From Escherichia coli (GTDB taxonomy: Bacteria; Pseudomonadota; Gammaproteobacteria; Enterobacterales; Enterobacteriaceae), in NCBI RefSeq assembly GCF_001677475.2, contig NZ_CP012498.1: 64,000 nt of DNA. The stretch is one strand, 5' to 3'. Position numbers: made by a program. Position 1 is the first letter of the stretch. Every line of letters begins with the position of its first letter. Positions 19,049 through 49,000 of this stretch are shown piece after piece.

Positions 19049-22000
19049 TTATCCTTGTCCGCCGCTGACACCACGTATACCAGCCGCTGCGGGCCACACG
19101 GAGCACGCGGCACATAGCCTTGATGCTGAACTCAGCCTGATGTTTTTCAATAAAGACATACTTCATTTCAGGCGCTTCGCGAAGCATGCCGCGGCCTTTT
19201 GGAGGATAGCCAGTTCCTCTGCCTGCTCCGCCAGTTGCCGCTTCAGGCGGGCATTTTCAGCGGCCAGTTCACTTTCACGCTCAGACGAGGTCATCTGTTG
19301 CTGCAGTTTGCTGCGCCACGCATAGAGCTGAGATTCATACAGGCTGAGTTCACGGGCTGCGGCAGCAACACCGATGCGTTCAGCAAGTTTCAGGGCTTCA
19401 CTGCGAAATTCAGGCGAATGCTGTTTACGGGGTTTTTTACTGGTTGAGACTGTTTTTGTCATGTGAGTCACCTCTGACTGAGAGTTTACTCACTTAGCCG
19501 CGTGTCCACTATTGCTGGATAAGATCAATGCAGTGGAGTAGAAAGGGCGCGCATTATTTGTTACAGACCAGAACTGCAGTCCTGAATAACGAACTACAGG
19601 ACAAATTCGCCAGTTGGTATCCCGGTTGTACGATAGACGCTCAGAGTAGGGGGACGTTATCCGCGATGGCAGCATAGCTACTGCCCCAGGATTTTTCATG
19701 CTCTCCTATAACAATCGACGATTGCTGGAAAGGCTGGGCCATGTCTCTCCAGCAGAAGCAGAAAAAGCTTATTTCGATTCCATAGGAAGATGATCTAGCT
19801 GCCTGAGTAGTTTACAGACAAAACACTTTCAAGGAAACACTGTGCGGTTCAGATAACTTCCCTTTTTAGCTAATGATGCACAAGCTGTTGTTGTGTGCAT
19901 TATTAGCTAAAAAAGATGTTGGTTTTTCATTAGACTATACCATAATTTATTTATGGTTTTGTATGAATTTCTGCCGCATGTATGCGAAGCGATATGAGGA
20001 AATAAGTTCATGGAGGAAGCGGCAAATAGCTATATAGTTGAGAGAACAATAGAAGTTGCGCTTAAATTCCTATGTTTATGAGAAGTGTGGTCTGAGCATT
20101 TTTGAGTGCAGTTTTATTTTCTTAGACTTGTTAAAAAGCGGTTCATTGTATGTACATCGTGGATAATAGTGGAGGCCTGAGAGCCGGAAGCTATCGCAAT
20201 ATCCATAACGACGTCTTTATTAGTCTGCACCATGATTCAAGGCTGCCCTGCCTGAAAGGAAGGGTAGATCGCCACCTTGGATTTTGGTTATCCGGGCTAA
20301 CTGGATGTCGGGCGCTACCATGGTGATAATGTTCATGTAGATGTATGGGCTGATTATCGCGGAGGCTTTAAAACTGATTGGTAAACTGCTTGGTATAATC
20401 GAGGGTTTTATTTTTTGTGCGTAGTGGTGTGGCCTTTGTGGTTACTTATAAGTAACTAAGAGAAGGATTGTATATGCAGAATAAAAGAAAATATAAGAGC
20501 TATTGTTCATATTTTTCCGTCGAGCCGTAGTCACGATATGCTATATTAATCTTTTTAATAGTGCCACTGGCGTAGTGGGTAAAATTGACTCCTTTATATT
20601 AGGGATAATATGATAATATACTTTTTCCCTTTTAAAATGGAAGAAAATGATGTTTTTCTTGAGAATGAAGTTAAGCACCAAAACATGAAAAATAAACAAT
20701 GTTTCGGTGTGAGAGCTTCCGATAAGACACCTCTGTGCTTTTTAAAACCAGGAGATGTTTTATATATCTTTGCTCATGGAAATACATCTGTTATAGGGAC
20801 AGGATCAGCGAGTGGGCCAACATTGAGTCCTGGGACGTTAGCAACTCAATTAATACACCGACGTTTACCAAAAAGTTTTAAAGATATAAGGATTTTATCT
20901 TGCAATTCTGGCATACATTCAAAAACTCCCGCTTTCGCACTACGTCTAAAAGAGATTATGTATGGATATGGTTATCACGATTTAGTAGTTACGGGATACT
21001 TGGGTGAAGTAGATGTGTCGAGAGATTGGAGATTAAAAAATCATAACGAAGATATGGATTTTTACTCTTCAAAGAAAAAAGGAATAATACCTATAAGTAG
21101 TATATTAACTGAGTCTCAAAAGGCATTTTGTGGATCAGATTTAAAGTTTTCTCTTTCTGATTTTAAAGTGCGATATTAAAATAACACCTTGATATTGCAA
21201 GGCTGTGAATTTTTTAGTTTTTTGAGCACTTTAGTAAAGTGCATTCGATGCAGTTTAACAATCAGTGTTTTGGTCGGTTTATATAAGCCTCCCGAAGTGA
21301 GAAAAGGTGGTTTCCGTTATCTGGCTGATGGTGTCCTGTTGAGTCTGCAATAATGCCCGTAGTCAGATATTCTCATGAATAAGTGAGATATCTCCCGGCT
21401 TTTACAAGGTGGTGTATACAGATTTCAGAATATACTGTTCTTTTAGATTAATAATTTCATCTTCAAAAGATGAGTAAACAAAGCAATTAAAGTTATTTAA
21501 TATGTGATGATTTTAGTTAACATAATTAACATTTAAATAAATTCAATAAGAAAATATACGTCGCATATTGTATTTATAACGTTAGTTGTTGTTAATACAC
21601 TAATAATAATTATCTGTTTTTATTAGATATTTTCATGTTTGAAAATATTAGTGCGGTAGCTATGGTATTTAGTTGATATGTATATGACACACTAACACTA
21701 CTACAGGATAGATAAAGTGAGTAATACACAACACAAACTTGATAAGTCTCGCCCCCCGAGAGTACAGATAACCTACGATGTTGAAACTGGAGATGCCGAG
21801 ACAGCGAAAGAGTTACCCCTTGTTATTGGGGTTTTGGGAGAGTACTCTTCATCAGATAAACCATTGAGAGAACGAAAGTTTATTAGTATAGACAAAGACA
21901 ATTTTGATGAAGTTATGACATCAATGAGTCCGAAGGCTCATTTTATGGTCAATAGTGTTATCCCGGGTAATGAAGGGAAACTGGATGTCGAGCTTACGTT

Positions 22001-46000: not shown

Positions 46001-49000
46001 AAAACTTTCTTTCAACATCGACATTACAGAGTAAAATTATAATTCTTGCTCATGGTACACCTGACTATATAGATTGCTCTCCTTTTGGACTAATGAGTCC
46101 TGTTCAGTTCCTTTTATTTCTTTATAATGAGCTTGGATTAAGATGTGCGGGTATTATATCATTTAAATCATGTTATCTTGGAAGTGGTTTTTTTTTAGAA
46201 AAATGTTGTGCTAATTGTGAGTTGCTTTTTAAAGACCTGAAAGTTGGGTGGTGGAAAGCCTATAAAGGAGTTGCAGCCACTCATTTTCTTTTTAATTCTT
46301 GTTCATTTAGCTCAGGGGAAGATGATTATATATTACGAAAAAAAACAGAGGGAGGTGAGAAACTAAGTGATGATTTCAGAGTTAAAATAATTAGAGGGAA
46401 TTATGATGTATCACCCTGTGATATTCGTGGAGCGCGATGGCGACGTTTAATCAATCAAAGATAAATATTGTGAATAGTCTTAAATCCTGGAAACCAAACT
46501 TTCTGATATTTTTCTAAATGGGGGCGTCTAATAGTTGTTTCCTTAAAGAGAACTCAGTCCGGATTGTGCGAGCTGAGCAATCGCCAAACCAAGCAAAACT
46601 ATTTACCAGGCAGAGCCATGCCGATCATAGCTCCTGTTTCCCGAAATGAACGACGTCAGATGCAAAAAACATTCATAAAACTTTGGATAAAAATCATGTT
46701 TGTCGACTTATGGCAATGCTTATGTTGCACCGGGGGTGCATATCAGTGATGTTACCTGAATGTTCTGTTGTTCTTACGGGTTCTGGTTTCGCTGTGATAA
46801 CGGAGAAAAAATGCGTGTCACGTTCGCGCAGGACTGCAGTGATCATGAGGTACTGCACGGTCACTACAGGCAGCTTCAACAGTGAAACAGTACAGGACGT
46901 CATGCCGGGAGCGGTGAAACGCCGCGTCGGCAATGAGCTTCCGGCGTCTCCAGTGGAGTGGCTGACGGATAATGGTTCATGCTACCGGGTTAATGAAACA
47001 CGCCAGTTCGCCTGGATGTTGGGAGTTGAACCGAAGAACACGGCGGTGCTGAGTCCGGAGAGTAACGGAATAGCAGAGAGCTTCGTGAAAACAATAAAGC
47101 GAGACTACATCAGTACCATGCCCAAACCAGACGGGTTAACGGCAGCAAAGAACCTTGTAGAGGCGTTCGGGCATGATAACGAATGGCATCCTCATAGTGC
47201 GCTGGATTATCGCTCACCACGGGAATATCTAGTAATGGGTTAAGTGATAACTGGTGTCTGGAAATATAGGGGAAAATCCTCTTTTAAAGCATCTGAAAGT
47301 AACATACAGACGAGCAAAAAGTGGACAACCACATAAACCATAAAAGCCGGGCAACGCTGTGCTGGCTGAAAGAAAAACCGAACTTCAGCGCCATTTACCA
47401 ACTGGTTTACTTGCGTACAACACGAAAACAGGTGGAACTTTGGCCTACATTTTGGCCCCCGGACTGATGAAAGCTGTCGTGAATTGCTGGCGCTACTTGC
47501 CCCTTTTACCATCGGTATGTTGACCACTGACGGATAGGGTCGTTGCACCAGAGAGTTACCGAAGGAGAAGCTCTGACTGGTGAGATTTTTACTCGGCGCA
47601 TTGAGTGCAACAATCTGGCCCTGAAACCCCGAATCAAACGTCTGGCCCGCAAAACTATCTGTTTTTCTCACTCTGTAGAACTTCATGAAAAAGTCATCGG
47701 TGCCGTTATCGAAAAATATATGTTCTACTAATTGGAGTTACCATCGTCAGGAAAAAGTGTAGCGGTATTGTAAGTATCCCGCATAATCGTGCCATTCATA
47801 TTTAGAGATCATCCGGCATAATCAATCTGCTAACGAAGGAGATCGCTATGCGTAAAGCCCGTTTTACTGAGCATCAGATCATCGCTGTGATTAAGTCAGT
47901 TGAAGCCGGACGAACCGTTAAAGATGTCTGCCGGGAGGCCGGTATCTCTGAAGCCACCTACTACAACTGGAAGTCCAGATACGGCGGCATGGAAGCTTCT
48001 GATATTAAAAAAATAAAGGATCTTGAGGACGAGAACCGCCGTCTCAAACAGATGTTTGCTGACCTGAGTCTGGAAAACCGGGCGCTGAAAGACGTTATCG
48101 AAAAAAGCTTTAAAACCAGCCTTTAAGCGTGAGCTGGTCACTCATCTAATAACGACATTCGGACTCAGTATCCGTCAGGCCTGCCGGAGTCTGAACCTGA
48201 GCAGAACGGTTTACCATTACCGCCCGGATACCACGCGTGATGAACCCGTTATTGCCGCCCTGCAGGCTGCGGCTGAGCGATACCCACGATACGGCTTTCC
48301 GAAGCTTTTCCAGATTCTGCGACGGCAAGGATACCCGTGGAATCACAAAAGGATCCATCGTATTTATTGTCTGCTGAAGCTGAATTTTCGCCGTAAAGGC
48401 AAACAACGGTTTCCGGTGCGTAATCCCTCGCCACTGGCTACGCCAGAAGCGCTGAACCAGAGCTGGTCTGTCGATTTTATGCATGATGCGCTGGCCTGTG
48501 GCCGTCGTTTTCGCACGTTCAATGTCGTTGATGACTTTAATCGTGAGGCGTTATCGATTGAAATCGATCTGAATCTGCCAGCTCTGCGAGTGGTCCGTGT
48601 ACTTGACAGGATCGCGGCAAAACGCGGTTATCCGCTCATGCTACGCATGGATAATGGTCCGGAATTTATCTCTCTGGCGCTGGCTGAATGGGCAGAGATA
48701 CACGCAGTAAAACTGGAGTTCATCCAGCCGGGTAAGCCGACGCAGAACGCTTTCATTGAGCGTTTTAACAGGACATACCGTACAGAAATACTCGATTTTT
48801 ATCTGTTCAGAACGCTGAATGAAGTACAGGAAATTACGGAGAAATGGTTATCAGAATATAACTATGAACGCCCGCATGAATCACTGAACAATATGACACC
48901 GGAGGAATACCGACTTCACCATTATTTGGCCGGGTTCTCAAAAAATGCATGGAACTAAAACGGGTCTATTTACAGTATTAGACACACCTATTTAGAATAC

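Follow-up and report, generated by a model that had tools for sequence, protein, structure and literature searches.

Gene content and composition of the AT-rich block

Genes, IS remnants and regulatory elements were analyzed in a 64,000-nt stretch of E. coli DNA (the window). By its gene content, the block at 19.9-46.5 kb is a complete Aai-type (EAEC Sci2-like) T6SS operon, accompanied by a small number of accessory or candidate-effector genes. IS calls at the flanks were obtained from the RefSeq annotation of p1RM9088, which is 99% identical to the window and collinear with it over 18147-47769. The features are distributed as follows:

9284-9493, + strand: hha, encoding an H-NS co-repressor of the Hha family; part of the IncFII backbone (family profile and PDB match)
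18147-19856, no strand: left IS debris (RefSeq annotation of p1RM9088)
18135-18878, - strand: IS21 istA fragment of the left debris
about 18945-19471, - strand: IS3 orfA/orfB fragments of the left debris
about 19520-19856, + strand: IS3-family/ISKra4-type 3' end of the left debris
19857-46500, no strand: AT-rich block defined by composition, with the T6SS cluster, accessory genes and two GC-rich IS inserts
20610-21179, + strand: orf20610, 189 aa, no family assigned
21180-21716, + strand: AT-rich leader/promoter region of tssB, 30% GC
21626-21649, + strand: predicted 10-bp hairpin (GAUAUUUUCA/UGAAAAUAUU), separated by 2 nt from the conserved core downstream
21652-21663, + (coding, non-template) strand: 12-mer TGCGGTAGCTAT, invariant in nine lineages
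21717-33133, + strand: tssB, tssC, aaiC/hcp-like, tssE, tssF, tssG, vgrG, DUF6931 gene, PAAR gene, tssA, tssJ, tssK
33134-35163, + strand: tssK-tssL spacer with an IS110-family pseudogene (about 33563-34863)
35164-41724, + strand: tssL (DotU), tssM (IcmF), tssH (ClpV), reading frames all intact
41725-43792, no strand: internal IS debris (Mu-transposase-like, integrase-core and IS3-family fragments)
43793-44878, + strand: ImpA_N + VasL domain protein (accessory TssA-family)
45143-45784, + strand: AvrPphF/HopF/EspJ-like putative ADP-ribosyltransferase (annotated start 45188)
45856-46464, + strand: 202-aa hypothetical protein, no family assigned
46514-48974, no strand: right IS debris, with IS630, integrase-core (IS3-family) and IS1 fragments (~46.6-47.7 kb) and an IS3-family element

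The tssB start codon is GTG, and the aaiC/hcp-like product shares 62% amino acid identity with EAEC AaiC (Hcp2). The product of orf20610 carries the motifs YIFAHG and ILSCNSG, with a Peptidase_C80 hint that stays below threshold. The ImpA_N + VasL gene is also found downstream of the cluster in EAEC and pCEC15, and the AvrPphF/HopF/EspJ-like family recurs beside the cluster in pCEC15. Downstream of the IS110 scar, recent dN/dS values (0.5-0.6, few substitutions) are compatible with relaxed selection.

The preliminary description had presented the block as an AT-rich island contrasting with a GC-rich backbone, and had proposed a sliding-window GC and codon-usage calculation. This calculation was run and clearly confirms the contrast: GC is 36.6% (0.366) in 19900-46500, compared to 57.9% (0.579) in the tra region (traI/traX/finO, 1-8000), with 0.511 and 0.459 for the whole flanks (1-19899 and 46501-64000). 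Both edges are sharp, with steps from 0.49 to 0.36 at ~19.7-19.9 kb and from 0.35 to 0.55 at ~46.5-46.9 kb. GC3 ranges from 0.20 to 0.35 in 19 block genes (median 0.26) and from 0.38 to 0.66 in 11 backbone genes (median 0.60; Mann-Whitney p=7.6e-6). The block proteins had been described as rich in Asn/Lys/Ile/Tyr and traI as Ala/Arg/Gly-rich, and we observed the same: N+K+I+Y+F amount to 25-37% of most T6SS proteins versus 14.0% of TraI, and A+R+G+P to 12-21% versus 31.6%. One exception concerns the PAAR protein (9.9% NKIYF). A/T runs of at least 8 bases occur at 12.1/kb in the block versus 0.2/kb in the tra region. The long runs pointed out upstream of tssB are indeed there: 21180-21716 contains 11 of them, the longest of 13 nt, and its GC drops to 22-23% at 21400-21700. 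The composition is not uniform: two GC-rich IS inserts lie inside, at 33.5-35.1 kb (the IS110 pseudogene) and 41.7-43.5 kb. AT-rich cargo is also present left of the block (15.3-15.7 and 16.9-17.8 kb) and past the right border first assigned to it (48.98-50.25, 50.92-52.12 and 61.2-61.8 kb).

Relatives, mobility and IS scars

The Aai (Sci2) cluster of EAEC (aaiA-P), located on the pheU island and activated by AggR, matches the present one in gene content and order from tssB to tssH, at 82-85% DNA identity. It is likewise AT-rich (39% GC), tssH is followed by IS debris and then by a VasL/ImpA_N gene, and its leader carries the same hairpin and 12-mer. The two differ in that the EAEC cluster is chromosomal whereas the present one is on a plasmid. 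Conserved leader element aside, homology begins ~15 nt before tssB, and the AggR-dependent aaiA promoter of EAEC is absent here. The IS110 pseudogene splits tssK from tssL in the window, and the homolog of orf20610 lies on the opposite side of the EAEC cluster, downstream of tssH.

IncF plasmids, a Salmonella IncI-type (MOBP/MPF_I) plasmid and the EAEC chromosome all carry the same cluster, with DNA identities of 82-99%. Because it occurs on different replicons beside different neighbours, the block is, by this comparison, a horizontally mobile module, and the horizontal acquisition first proposed is borne out. The carrier itself is recognizable from its sequence as a p7v-like IncFII STEC/ETEC virulence plasmid of E. 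coli. Such chimeric plasmids (E. coli, Escherichia clade I) have an IncFII backbone, a T6SS, an ST-I enterotoxin gene and an IS-rich mosaic structure like that of the window, and the T6SS block of these relatives is 96.6-99.1% identical. Their junction between backbone and T6SS block varies between plasmids, and the window has an extra IS3-family copy and the ST-I insert at 50.9-52.1 kb. The association of T6SS and esta4 on p7v-like plasmids has already been published (Okuno 2023, PMC10100065).

The block had also been attributed to a low-GC donor. A recent arrival from such a donor, by a single insertion between IS elements and not yet ameliorated, would fit the sharp compositional step with IS fragments at both edges and a GC3 far under that of the backbone genes. 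Plasmid T6SSs are generally associated with IS, and transmissible T6SS plasmids tend to have a lower GC than their hosts (PMC13098142); the presence of an identical 12-mer in Photorhabdus loci (35-45% GC) also hints at exchange with lower-GC Enterobacterales. However, the searches turned up no low-GC donor: among TssB and TssC relatives at or above 79% identity, the only genera named are Escherichia and Salmonella, and the next TssC relatives (74-78%) belong to Enterobacterales with ordinary GC. The cluster has a GC of 0.36-0.39 in four lineages on different replicons, and of 0.38-0.41 in lineages with TssB at 71-82%. Since lineages separated by a dS of 0.35-0.8 all remain at 36-39% GC (36-41% across E. 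coli and Salmonella) under purifying selection (omega 0.04-0.25), the low GC is best read as a stable, long-maintained and selected-through property of a mobile T6SS lineage, not as a sign of recent arrival.

The block had been described as bounded by IS scars; IS debris does flank it, and also interrupts it, but these are not clean island borders. The scars and the gene order are common to a plasmid lineage at 96.7% identity (3.4% divergence) and partly to the EAEC island, where the internal debris at 41725-43792 is partly found at 79-89% identity. The IS3-type end is present twice, the last 150 nt of the left debris being ~85% identical to a copy at about 43090-43240. Moreover, accessory genes are permuted between lineages and no intact flanking IS pair was found around the block. 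For these reasons the scars are old and record repeated rearrangement inside a mosaic; they do not delimit a single insertion. Recombination has also affected the 5' half of the cluster, and the IS3-family element at 47769-48974 is not at the corresponding site in p1RM9088. A recent single insertion is thus an unlikely origin.

A hairpin and an ops-like element in the tssB leader

The leader was compared among nine lineages picked by gene or TssB protein homology. It is lineage-specific and unalignable among them, apart from the hairpin and the 12-mer. The 12-mer lies 65 nt upstream of the tssB GTG and is invariant in the nine lineages (TssB 79-100%), at -65 to -170. A tenth lineage (TssB 72%) has GGCGGTAGCGTT in its place, an 11/12 match to canonical ops. 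Bases 2-9 of the 12-mer are the ops core GCGGTAGC, for which the chance expectation in this leader is 0.0025 and which has no other occurrence at 19.8-46.5 kb. The hairpin is present in 10/10 lineages, with covariation support from the group with TssB at 89% or more: 93.8% of cells are paired, compared to 87.3% when shuffled (0/500) and 44-59% when partners are slid, and the covariation score is 0.308 versus 0.211 (0/500), with 16 G.U cells. AT-rich RNA often forms hairpins, and the z-scores here are modest (-1 to -4); those of PVC leaders lack significance. The ops-like element, the hha gene of the backbone and the absence of the EAEC AggR promoter had not been picked up in the preliminary description.

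RfaH recognition requires ops bases 3-8 (Zuber 2018, PMC5995543), and 6/6 of these are present. The 12-mer is off at 4/12 positions compared to every validated E. coli ops, position 1 being T instead of G and positions 10-12 reading TAT instead of R-T-R. It thereby lacks the canonical TG pause at positions 11-12, and T11G is among the most damaging single substitutions in vivo (Zuber 2018, PMC5995543). Nor does it fit the minimal ops motif GGTAGNNT (bioRxiv 10.1101/2025.02.08.637259). A shifted TG at positions 12-13 is also lost in two lineages (L060, L064). Rfam JUMPstart gave no match in any leader, and the element was not found in the leaders of sister T6SS clusters of other genera.

Operons controlled by RfaH and ops (UPEC CFT073 c3392-tssH and c1882, EAEC Sci1) are, like the present one, long, AT-rich and horizontally acquired, and have in their 5' leader a short non-template-strand element with an identical core. 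In CFT073, RfaH-bound leader ops are at -40 to -71 in 4/8 operons (full range -40 to -634), comparable to ~65 nt here; one of these operons is a T6SS, at -60, and all are bound by H-NS/StpA (Hustmyer 2022, PMC9765446). The activity of the EAEC Sci1 T6SS requires RfaH and ops (bioRxiv 10.1101/2025.02.08.637259). Validated sites read GGCGGTAGC followed by GTG, GTA, ATG or ATA, unlike the element here; the T6SS subtype is also not that of the published cases.

A second precedent comes from the Photorhabdus PVC operons, whose canonical RfaH operator is replaced by the same 12-mer, placed by RNA-seq between the TSS and pvc1 (Vlisidou 2019, PMC6748792). We verified this placement at 9 Photorhabdus loci. 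The 3' 12 nt of the PVC "cryptic operator" CAGGTTGXTGCGGTAGCTAT are identical to TGCGGTAGCTAT, and in both cases the motif follows an inverted repeat and sits in the leader of a contractile-injection operon, ahead of its first gene. The present leader does not share the 5' half CAGGTTG, and the PVC machine is an extracellular CIS of another host genus, not a T6SS. Taken together, we infer that TGCGGTAGCTAT is a variant ops element for RfaH-type anti-termination countering H-NS.

The hairpin and 12-mer might instead be the operator or RNA target of another regulator, possibly linked to Hfq or HexA, the likeness to ops then reflecting partial convergence or distant ancestry without RfaH function. 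The four divergent positions, including the pause-critical T11, point in this direction, as does an invariant stretch of 12-14 nt, longer than the 6-nt RfaH contact region. The PVC authors set their motif apart from the canonical RfaH operator and assigned it, as operator, to a cryptic regulator with possible Hfq/HexA dependence, believing the motif restricted to pvc loci (Vlisidou 2019, PMC6748792), and their reading counts against an RfaH mechanism. On the other hand, exactly the RfaH-contacted bases are kept, on the correct strand and at the correct position, a near-canonical ops occurs in the leader of a deeper T6SS lineage, and in PVCs the motif stands in the place of the canonical operator. 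The G.U pairs are at odds with a palindromic operator acting as double-stranded DNA. The cluster is not accompanied by a regulator gene, and no NusG paralog is annotated on p1RM9088. Any reader of the motif would have to be present in all of E. coli, Salmonella and Photorhabdus, as RfaH is. We therefore regard another regulator as doubtful.

The conserved block could also be a core sigma-70 promoter. A consensus scan gives a 9/12 match (-35 TTGAAA at 21639-21644, 16-nt spacer, -10 TATGGT at 21661-21666) which overlaps the 12-mer, and lineages with TssB at 89% or more show partial conservation of the TTGAAA-like and TATG flanks. If this promoter were real, the 12-mer would not be transcribed, which would count against the anti-termination mechanism. 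However, the most conserved bases would sit in the spacer, where a promoter is normally under the least constraint; the last -10 base can be T, C or A, and pCEC15 would have a spacer of 14 nt; and the lineages at 79-82% keep the 12-mer with an unrelated sequence at the -35 position. Promoter-like matches are no commoner in this region than in shuffles (10 versus 8.9). In EAEC, the 12-mer is downstream of the experimentally mapped AggR-dependent aaiA promoter (Yasir 2018, PMC6392122). A promoter function is very unlikely.

Proposed silencing and expression of the T6SS operon

The block exceeds the tra region in AT content, TpA steps, A/T tracts and H-NS-motif density (3-9x), and its promoter-like sites are 4x denser (45 versus 11 per 11.4 kb). 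As judged from these counts, it has every sequence property of H-NS-preferred DNA, and its silencing by H-NS is plausible. The Salmonella SPI-6 T6SS is also AT-rich and horizontally acquired in an enterobacterial host, with H-NS binding and de-repression shown there, whereas here the role of H-NS is predicted from nucleotide composition and motifs. The closest experimental precedent is that of other E. coli T6SS operons (Hustmyer 2022, PMC9765446). The hha product matches its family profile at 92.1 bits (cut-off 90) and the PDB Hha at E=4e-19. No AggR-type site with a -10 arrangement was found in 21180-21716.

With moderate confidence, we favour a joint reading in which a mobile, stably AT-rich Aai-type T6SS is silenced by H-NS and expressed through the leader ops variant and RfaH-type anti-termination. 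In the E. coli host, H-NS/StpA would coat the 63% AT block, probably assisted by the plasmid's own Hha, and prevent initiation both in the leader and at the numerous promoter-like sites within genes. Some signal would permit initiation in 21180-21650, and RNA polymerase would then transcribe the hairpin and next the non-template-strand 12-mer, which as a variant ops would load RfaH or an RfaH-like NusG paralog. The modified polymerase would resist pausing, Rho and H-NS roadblocks, and could cross ~20 kb of AT-rich DNA, including the ~2-kb tssK-tssL spacer with its untranslated IS110 pseudogene.

This spacer raises the possibility of a relic cluster in decay, with a polar IS110 insertion, unexpressed tssLMH and a block that is silent baggage. 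The IS110 copy that parts tssK from tssL is frameshifted, as is a neighbouring 388-aa gene in the window, and dN/dS for tssL/tssM/tssH is 0.3-0.6 in the IS110-bearing clade versus 0.17-0.25 between lineages; substitution counts are small, however, and recent comparisons generally yield higher dN/dS. The T6SS frames are all intact in three sub-lineages with a common IS110 scar. Next to tssL, ~290 nt of the spacer persist in conserved form in the different lineages, and an internal promoter could be located there. A polar effect would also be overcome by anti-termination starting at the leader element. Decay is quite unlikely, a little more so than a recent insertion.

A mobile Aai-type cluster on an already described type of E. 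coli virulence plasmid is ordinary, and the leader element is the new part. This ops-like signal suggests how such silenced foreign operons may get transcribed.

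Gene content and composition of the T6SS block

The T6SS of the window is complete: TssA-C, TssE-M, Hcp, VgrG and a PAAR protein are all present and intact. TssA, TssB, TssC, TssE-H, TssK-M, VgrG and PAAR are recognised by family models. TssA, B, C, F, G, H, K, DotU and VgrG pass the NCBIfam cut-off; TssE, TssM and PAAR score below it but are annotated in p1RM9088, a plasmid collinear with the window over 18147-47769 at 99% identity. For TssJ, the RefSeq annotation of p1RM9088 is the sole identification. The role of Hcp is taken by a 168-aa AaiC homolog, 62% identical to AaiC/Hcp2 (E=1e-78) and without family match. 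The cluster shares this atypical Hcp with Aai (Sci2), the chromosomal T6SS of enteroaggregative E. coli (EAEC), as well as the gene order aaiA-P, and is collinear with it by blastn at 82-85% DNA identity over tssB-tssK and tssL-tssH.

On the left, the cluster adjoins an IncFII F-type backbone (traI, traX, finO, repA); on its right are found a tyrosine recombinase, a RepB-family replicon and parA. The nearest plasmids are p7v-like STEC/ETEC chimeric virulence plasmids of E. coli and Escherichia clade I. The association of T6SS and esta4 was already reported on such p7v-like plasmids (Okuno 2023, PMC10100065), and an ST-I gene of the window is in line with it. Plasmids have also been surveyed as T6SS vehicles, with an enrichment of flanking IS3 and IS5 and a lower GC of transmissible T6SS plasmids (2026 survey, PMC13098142). 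An AT-rich, IS-flanked T6SS on a virulence plasmid is known biology, and ordinary.

Genes of the window outside the T6SS core
9284-9493, plus strand: Hha-family gene, in the IncFII backbone, flanked by the thermonuclease gene and the DUF2726/repA region
20610-21179, plus strand: orf20610, with YIFAHG and ILSCNSG motifs
45143-45784, plus strand: AvrPphF/HopF/EspJ-like putative ADP-ribosyltransferase (Pfam E=3.5e-8, weak match to PDB 1S21)
45856-46464, plus strand: 202-aa protein without family, directly after the putative ADP-ribosyltransferase gene
49083-50249, plus strand: AT-rich 388-aa hypothetical gene
51637-51870, minus strand: ST-I family heat-stable enterotoxin gene (77 aa, core CCELCCNPACAGC)
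61244-61717, minus strand: AT-rich ORF (29% GC) with a YopT-type cysteine protease domain fragment (E=4e-6, below cut-off)

The ST-I gene is 98.9% identical to the plasmid copies of strains 08-00022 and N96 and ~81% identical to sta1. It sits within a 1.2-kb AT-rich insert (50922-52122) which is absent at the same site in p1RM9088. AT-rich cargo is also found beyond the borders of the block (19857-46500). The 388-aa gene is intact in p1RM9088 and pMFDS1022581_1; in the window its frame is broken by small indels, leaving ORFs 49068-49436 and 49680-50246. A degenerate second copy of the YopT-type ORF was observed at ~16941-17512, and both copies fall inside direct repeats that have diverged (15.7-19.3 kb and 61.2-63.5 kb, 88-92% identical) and that enclose the T6SS and the RepB/ParA segment. 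An AvrPphF/HopF/EspJ-like family gene also adjoins the Aai-type T6SS of pCEC15, a mouse E. coli plasmid; from this recurrence, the 45143-45784 product may be T6SS cargo paired with an immunity protein. The motifs of orf20610 suggest a His/Cys protease dyad, with a sub-threshold match to Peptidase_C80 (E=0.18); no match to a DNA-binding family that would point to a regulator was obtained.

As announced by the preliminary description, an AT-rich block stands out from a GC-rich tra/rep backbone. GC content calculated in 1-kb windows stays between 0.29 and 0.42 across 20-46 kb, except for two peaks at 34-35 kb and 42-43 kb, against 0.55-0.61 in the traI region, and the steps are sharp at both ends (~19.8 kb and 46.5-46.9 kb).

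GC content by region
19900-46500: 0.366
1-8000: 0.579
1-19899: 0.511
46501-64000: 0.459

At the gene level the contrast is greatest in third codon positions: GC3 ranges from 0.20 to 0.35 in 19 block genes and from 0.38 to 0.66 in 11 backbone genes (Mann-Whitney p=7.6e-6). ATA, TTA and AGA, which are rare codons in E. coli, are 3-5x enriched in the block (32 vs 8, 33 vs 7 and 16.5 vs 5.9 per 1000). The described richness of the block proteins in Asn, Lys, Ile and Tyr, as opposed to an Ala/Arg/Gly-rich TraI, was recovered: N+K+I+Y+F account for 25-37% of their residues versus 14% in TraI, and A+R+G+P for 12-21% versus 31.6%. The same is true of the long A/T runs in non-coding DNA: A/T-only runs of at least 8 nt are 60x commoner in the block than in tra, and region 21180-21716, upstream of tssB, has 30% GC, falling to 22-23% at 21400-21700. 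Across 20000-46000, each 1-kb window shows a positive GC skew (+0.06 to +0.22), i.e. the coding strand is richer in G than in C; given this skew, few C-rich Rho-loading sites are expected in the mRNA of the block.

Mosaic structure and origin of the low GC

The distribution of IS scars was compared between the window and its relatives. The IS3-like and IS21 debris on the left of the block and the IS630, IS2 and IS1 fragments on its right agree with the RefSeq annotation of p1RM9088. The view that these scars bound the block as one island found no support. Every such scar is also present in the plasmid lineage of 96.7% identity (the 96.7% lineage), including the tssK-tssL IS110 pseudogene and the debris following tssH, which is itself partly common to the EAEC island (79-89% identity). 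The backbone-block junctions vary among related plasmids. One IS3-family 3' end occurs at 19700-19856, at ~43090-43240 and also after tssH in EAEC; these IS3-type ends of ~150 nt, 85% identical, are the sole related flanking pieces, and one of them lies inside the block. A composite transposon was rejected, as the repeat search gave only diverged fragments and no intact flanking IS pair. Of the marks of a discrete island (intact flanking IS, or an integrase with att), only IS fragments were found. The backbone flank matches many IncF plasmids, none of which joins both flanks as an empty site.

Rearrangement is also visible inside the cluster: orf20610 is upstream of tssB in the window, and its EAEC homolog is downstream of tssH. 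With respect to the 96.7% lineage, dS is 0.11-0.38 in tssB-tssF, 0.05 in vgrG and less than 0.03 in every gene after it (21717-29336 versus the rest), a mosaic which indicates that T6SS alleles have recombined. Shared scars, the permuted orf20610, differing junctions and mosaic dS together lead to the same conclusion: the region is an old mosaic in which AT-rich cargo and IS debris have been rearranged many times. One gene deserves a separate remark. At 34 sites of tssM (35785-39189) the window stands apart from p1RM9088 and pMFDS1022581_1 alike, whereas only 6 sites separate these two plasmids. The dN/dS is ~0.55; this may reflect either a recombination patch or faster change on the window branch. 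Downstream of the IS110 scar, the counts behind dN/dS are too small to decide on relaxed selection.

The origin of the low GC was then considered. Four lineages on different replicons, i.e. the window plasmid group, the EAEC chromosome, pCEC15 and an IncI-type plasmid of Salmonella Newport, have a cluster GC of 0.36-0.39 and a GC3 of 0.25-0.34; further E. coli-associated lineages, with TssB at 71-82%, have a cluster GC of 0.38-0.41. Between lineages, dS reaches 0.35-0.8 and omega 0.04-0.25. Such values at low GC imply long divergence under purifying selection and no amelioration. The search for a low-GC host by TssC genome scan, TssF tblastn against plasmids and TssB homologs returned none. 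Named TssB homologs of at least 79% identity belong to Escherichia or Salmonella only, and TssF above 60% identity was found in ~54 PLSDB records, the matches listed being E. coli. The TssC scan of 100,044 species representatives, which uses exact 8-residue peptide words and is not exhaustive, gave no identity above 78% once Escherichia and Salmonella are set aside. The genera that come next (Mangrovibacter, Tatumella, Rahnella and Ewingella, TssC 74-78%) have a cluster GC of 48-55%; among the nearest other-genus clusters, only the Enterobacter soli copy is AT-rich. In five of these related loci (L002-L006: four genera with host-like sister T6SS gene GC of ~0.5, and the AT-rich E. soli copy), the 700 nt upstream of tssB were observed to be AT-rich (GC 0.33-0.37).

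The low-GC donor put forward in the preliminary description found no counterpart in these searches, and the lineages keep 0.36-0.41 GC despite their dS. Low GC is best seen as a trait that a long-resident mobile lineage has kept under purifying selection. This corrects a common inference: the low GC of the block is not evidence of a recent low-GC donor.

A conserved element in the tssB leader

Regions upstream of tssB were aligned from five loci. Amid otherwise unalignable sequence, the sole invariant block is GTGCGGTAGCTATG (21651-21664), present in one copy per Aai-type locus. It contains the 12-mer TGCGGTAGCTAT (21652-21663), here called the leader element, on the plus strand like tssB and 65 nt before its GTG. 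In a motif-independent sample, for which TssB homologs were taken and their genomic contexts fetched, TGCGGTAGCTAT is invariant in nine lineages (TssB 79-100%), at -65 to -170 from tssB. A tenth lineage (L066, TssB 72%), found on another F-type plasmid with its T6SS immediately after traI-traX-finO, carries GGCGGTAGCGTT, a near-canonical ops, at -354 from tssB. In an eleventh an IS605-type insertion has taken the place of the leader. By chance, 0.0025 copies of the core GCGGTAGC would be expected in the window leader on the same strand, and the block (19.8-46.5 kb) has no other copy.

Directly 5' of the core, a hairpin (21626-21649 in the window) is predicted in 10/10 lineages, with at least three unrelated stem sequences. 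Among 15 distinct alignable sequences, the 10-bp helix is 93.8% paired; shuffles reach 87.3% (0/500) and slid partners 44-59%. Its covariation score is 0.308 versus 0.211 (0/500). The alignment contains 16 G.U cells, which favour a single-strand hairpin over a double-stranded palindromic operator. Sites of sigma-54, Fur, CRP, FNR and SlyA type were sought by eye in the conserved block and none fitted. Promoter-like sites of the window leader are located upstream of the element (21497-21555) and overlapping it (21639-21666). The EAEC copy of the element follows the mapped AggR-dependent promoter and is hence inside the transcribed leader.

The core GCGGTAGC corresponds to positions 2-9 of ops, the element that recruits RfaH. 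The ops signal is carried by the non-template strand and its recognition requires bases 3-8 (C G G T A G), which both make the contact with RfaH and fold into a C3:G8 hairpin (Zuber 2018, PMC5995543). All six are present at 21654-21659 (CGGTAG) and are invariant in 10/10 lineages. In uropathogenic strain CFT073, validated ops consist of GGCGGTAGC followed by GTG, GTA, ATG or ATA; in 4/8 of them the distance to the first gene is 40-71 nt, one belongs to a T6SS operon (at -60), and all RfaH targets are bound by H-NS/StpA (Hustmyer 2022, PMC9765446). The Sci1 T6SS of EAEC needs RfaH and two ops elements (Taillefer 2025 preprint, bioRxiv 10.1101/2025.02.08.637259); Sci2/Aai is not mentioned in that preprint. 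Counter-silencing of T6SS operons by RfaH and ops was thus shown in 2022 and 2025 for other T6SS types (PMC9765446; bioRxiv 10.1101/2025.02.08.637259).

The leader element also departs from ops. It has T at position 1 and TAT at positions 10-12 (G8 C9 T10 A11 T12 G13), so that the TG of the T11-G12 pause, common to all validated E. coli targets, is shifted to 12-13, and this shifted TG is itself lost in two related loci, L060 and L064. The minimal ops motif GGTAGNNT does not match the element. Membership of the JUMPstart family was rejected: its Rfam covariance model matched neither the window leader nor five related loci with E up to 10. The missing T11 is a serious caveat on the RfaH reading, and weighs in favour of its main rival, according to which the hairpin and TGCGGTAGCTAT are read by another factor. 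One may speculate that a hairpin-assisted pause takes the place of the missing TG pause.

A literature search for the exact element string led to the Photorhabdus virulence cassettes (PVC). In PVC classes I and III, the interval from the transcription start site to pvc1 contains the canonical RfaH operator GGCGGTAGNNT; class II and some class I have instead a "cryptic" motif, CAGGTTGXTGCGGTAGCTAT, known to its authors only from pvc loci and ascribed by them to an unknown regulator (Vlisidou 2019, PMC6748792). The last 12 nt of this 20-nt motif are identical to the T6SS leader element; its 5' CAGGTTG is absent from T6SS leaders. We confirmed the motif on nine loci of a viral-contig collection, 81-145 nt upstream of an ORF of the contractile-injection tube family (149 aa). 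In PVC leaders an inverted repeat ends just before the core, with fold statistics that are not significant. The same variant is thus found in the place of canonical ops in two unrelated families of contractile-injection operons from different genera. The leader element would be a new form of a known type of control, and joins up with the published PVC motif.

Probable silencing of the block and its possible relief

The block has the sequence features of H-NS targets, being AT-rich with many A/T tracts and TpA steps. H-NS-motif matches number 2.2 per kb versus 0.25 in tra, and TpA frequency is 0.085 versus 0.026. Promoter-like hexamer pairs are also more numerous (45 vs 11 per 11.4 kb, block versus tra), a count equal to shuffle expectation and so purely compositional. 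The product of the Hha-family gene at 9284-9493 scores 92.1 bits against a cut-off of 90, and matches Hha in PDB with E=4e-19. Hha is an H-NS co-repressor that prefers horizontally acquired DNA, and this backbone gene is relevant to the silencing of AT-rich cargo. The main texts of the EAEC 042 hns transcriptome literature do not mention Aai. Judged by composition, the general reading of the preliminary description, a foreign, AT-rich and probably silenced block, is reasonable.

AggR control as in EAEC was ruled out for the window. In EAEC, the AggR-dependent aaiA promoter consists of WWWWWWWTATC, 21-23 bp and a -10 element (Yasir 2018, PMC6392122); the published sequence is absent from the window, and region 20401-21716 contains no such arrangement of AggR site and -10. 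The two AraC-family proteins of p1RM9088 are Rob-like, not Rns/AggR-like. This plasmid has no annotated hns nor NusG/RfaH paralog gene, which makes chromosomal RfaH the simplest candidate reader of the element.

We think that the block is an Aai-type T6SS operon silenced by H-NS/Hha, and that an RfaH-type factor is loaded at the leader element. Initiation, once permitted from a promoter placed before the element, would be followed by loading of this factor at the hairpin and TGCGGTAGCTAT, and transcription would become processive. Such processivity would also account for tssL, tssM and tssH, which are intact behind a ~2-kb spacer with the IS110 scar. Alternatively to read-through, these genes could be served by an internal promoter in the spacer. 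The ~290 nt next to tssL (34870-35163) are conserved across lineages despite the IS110, as seen with the spacers of related loci L018, L019 and L020; from this alignment, the tssL-proximal spacer could be an internal promoter or another control region.

Returning to RfaH-type loading, a broader and more tentative proposal, which we regard as possible rather than probable, is that the hairpin and TGCGGTAGCTAT form a second class, so far unrecognised, of non-template-strand signals that recruit RfaH or a dedicated NusG paralog. The Aai-type T6SSs of E. coli and Salmonella would have this signal in common with Photorhabdus PVCs, with an RNA or non-template-DNA hairpin replacing the TG pause. The leader element ties together the H-NS silencing of AT-rich islands, RfaH/ops counter-silencing and the PVC "cryptic operator". 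If the proposal is true, RfaH is an unnoticed co-regulator both of plasmid T6SSs and of the aai virulence locus in EAEC, and the reading of T6SS and PVC operons through H-NS filaments and IS insertions is explained. If the element loads RfaH, the recognition rules of ops would need widening, and aaiC, a widely used EAEC marker, would belong to an operon with an unrecognised step of elongation control.
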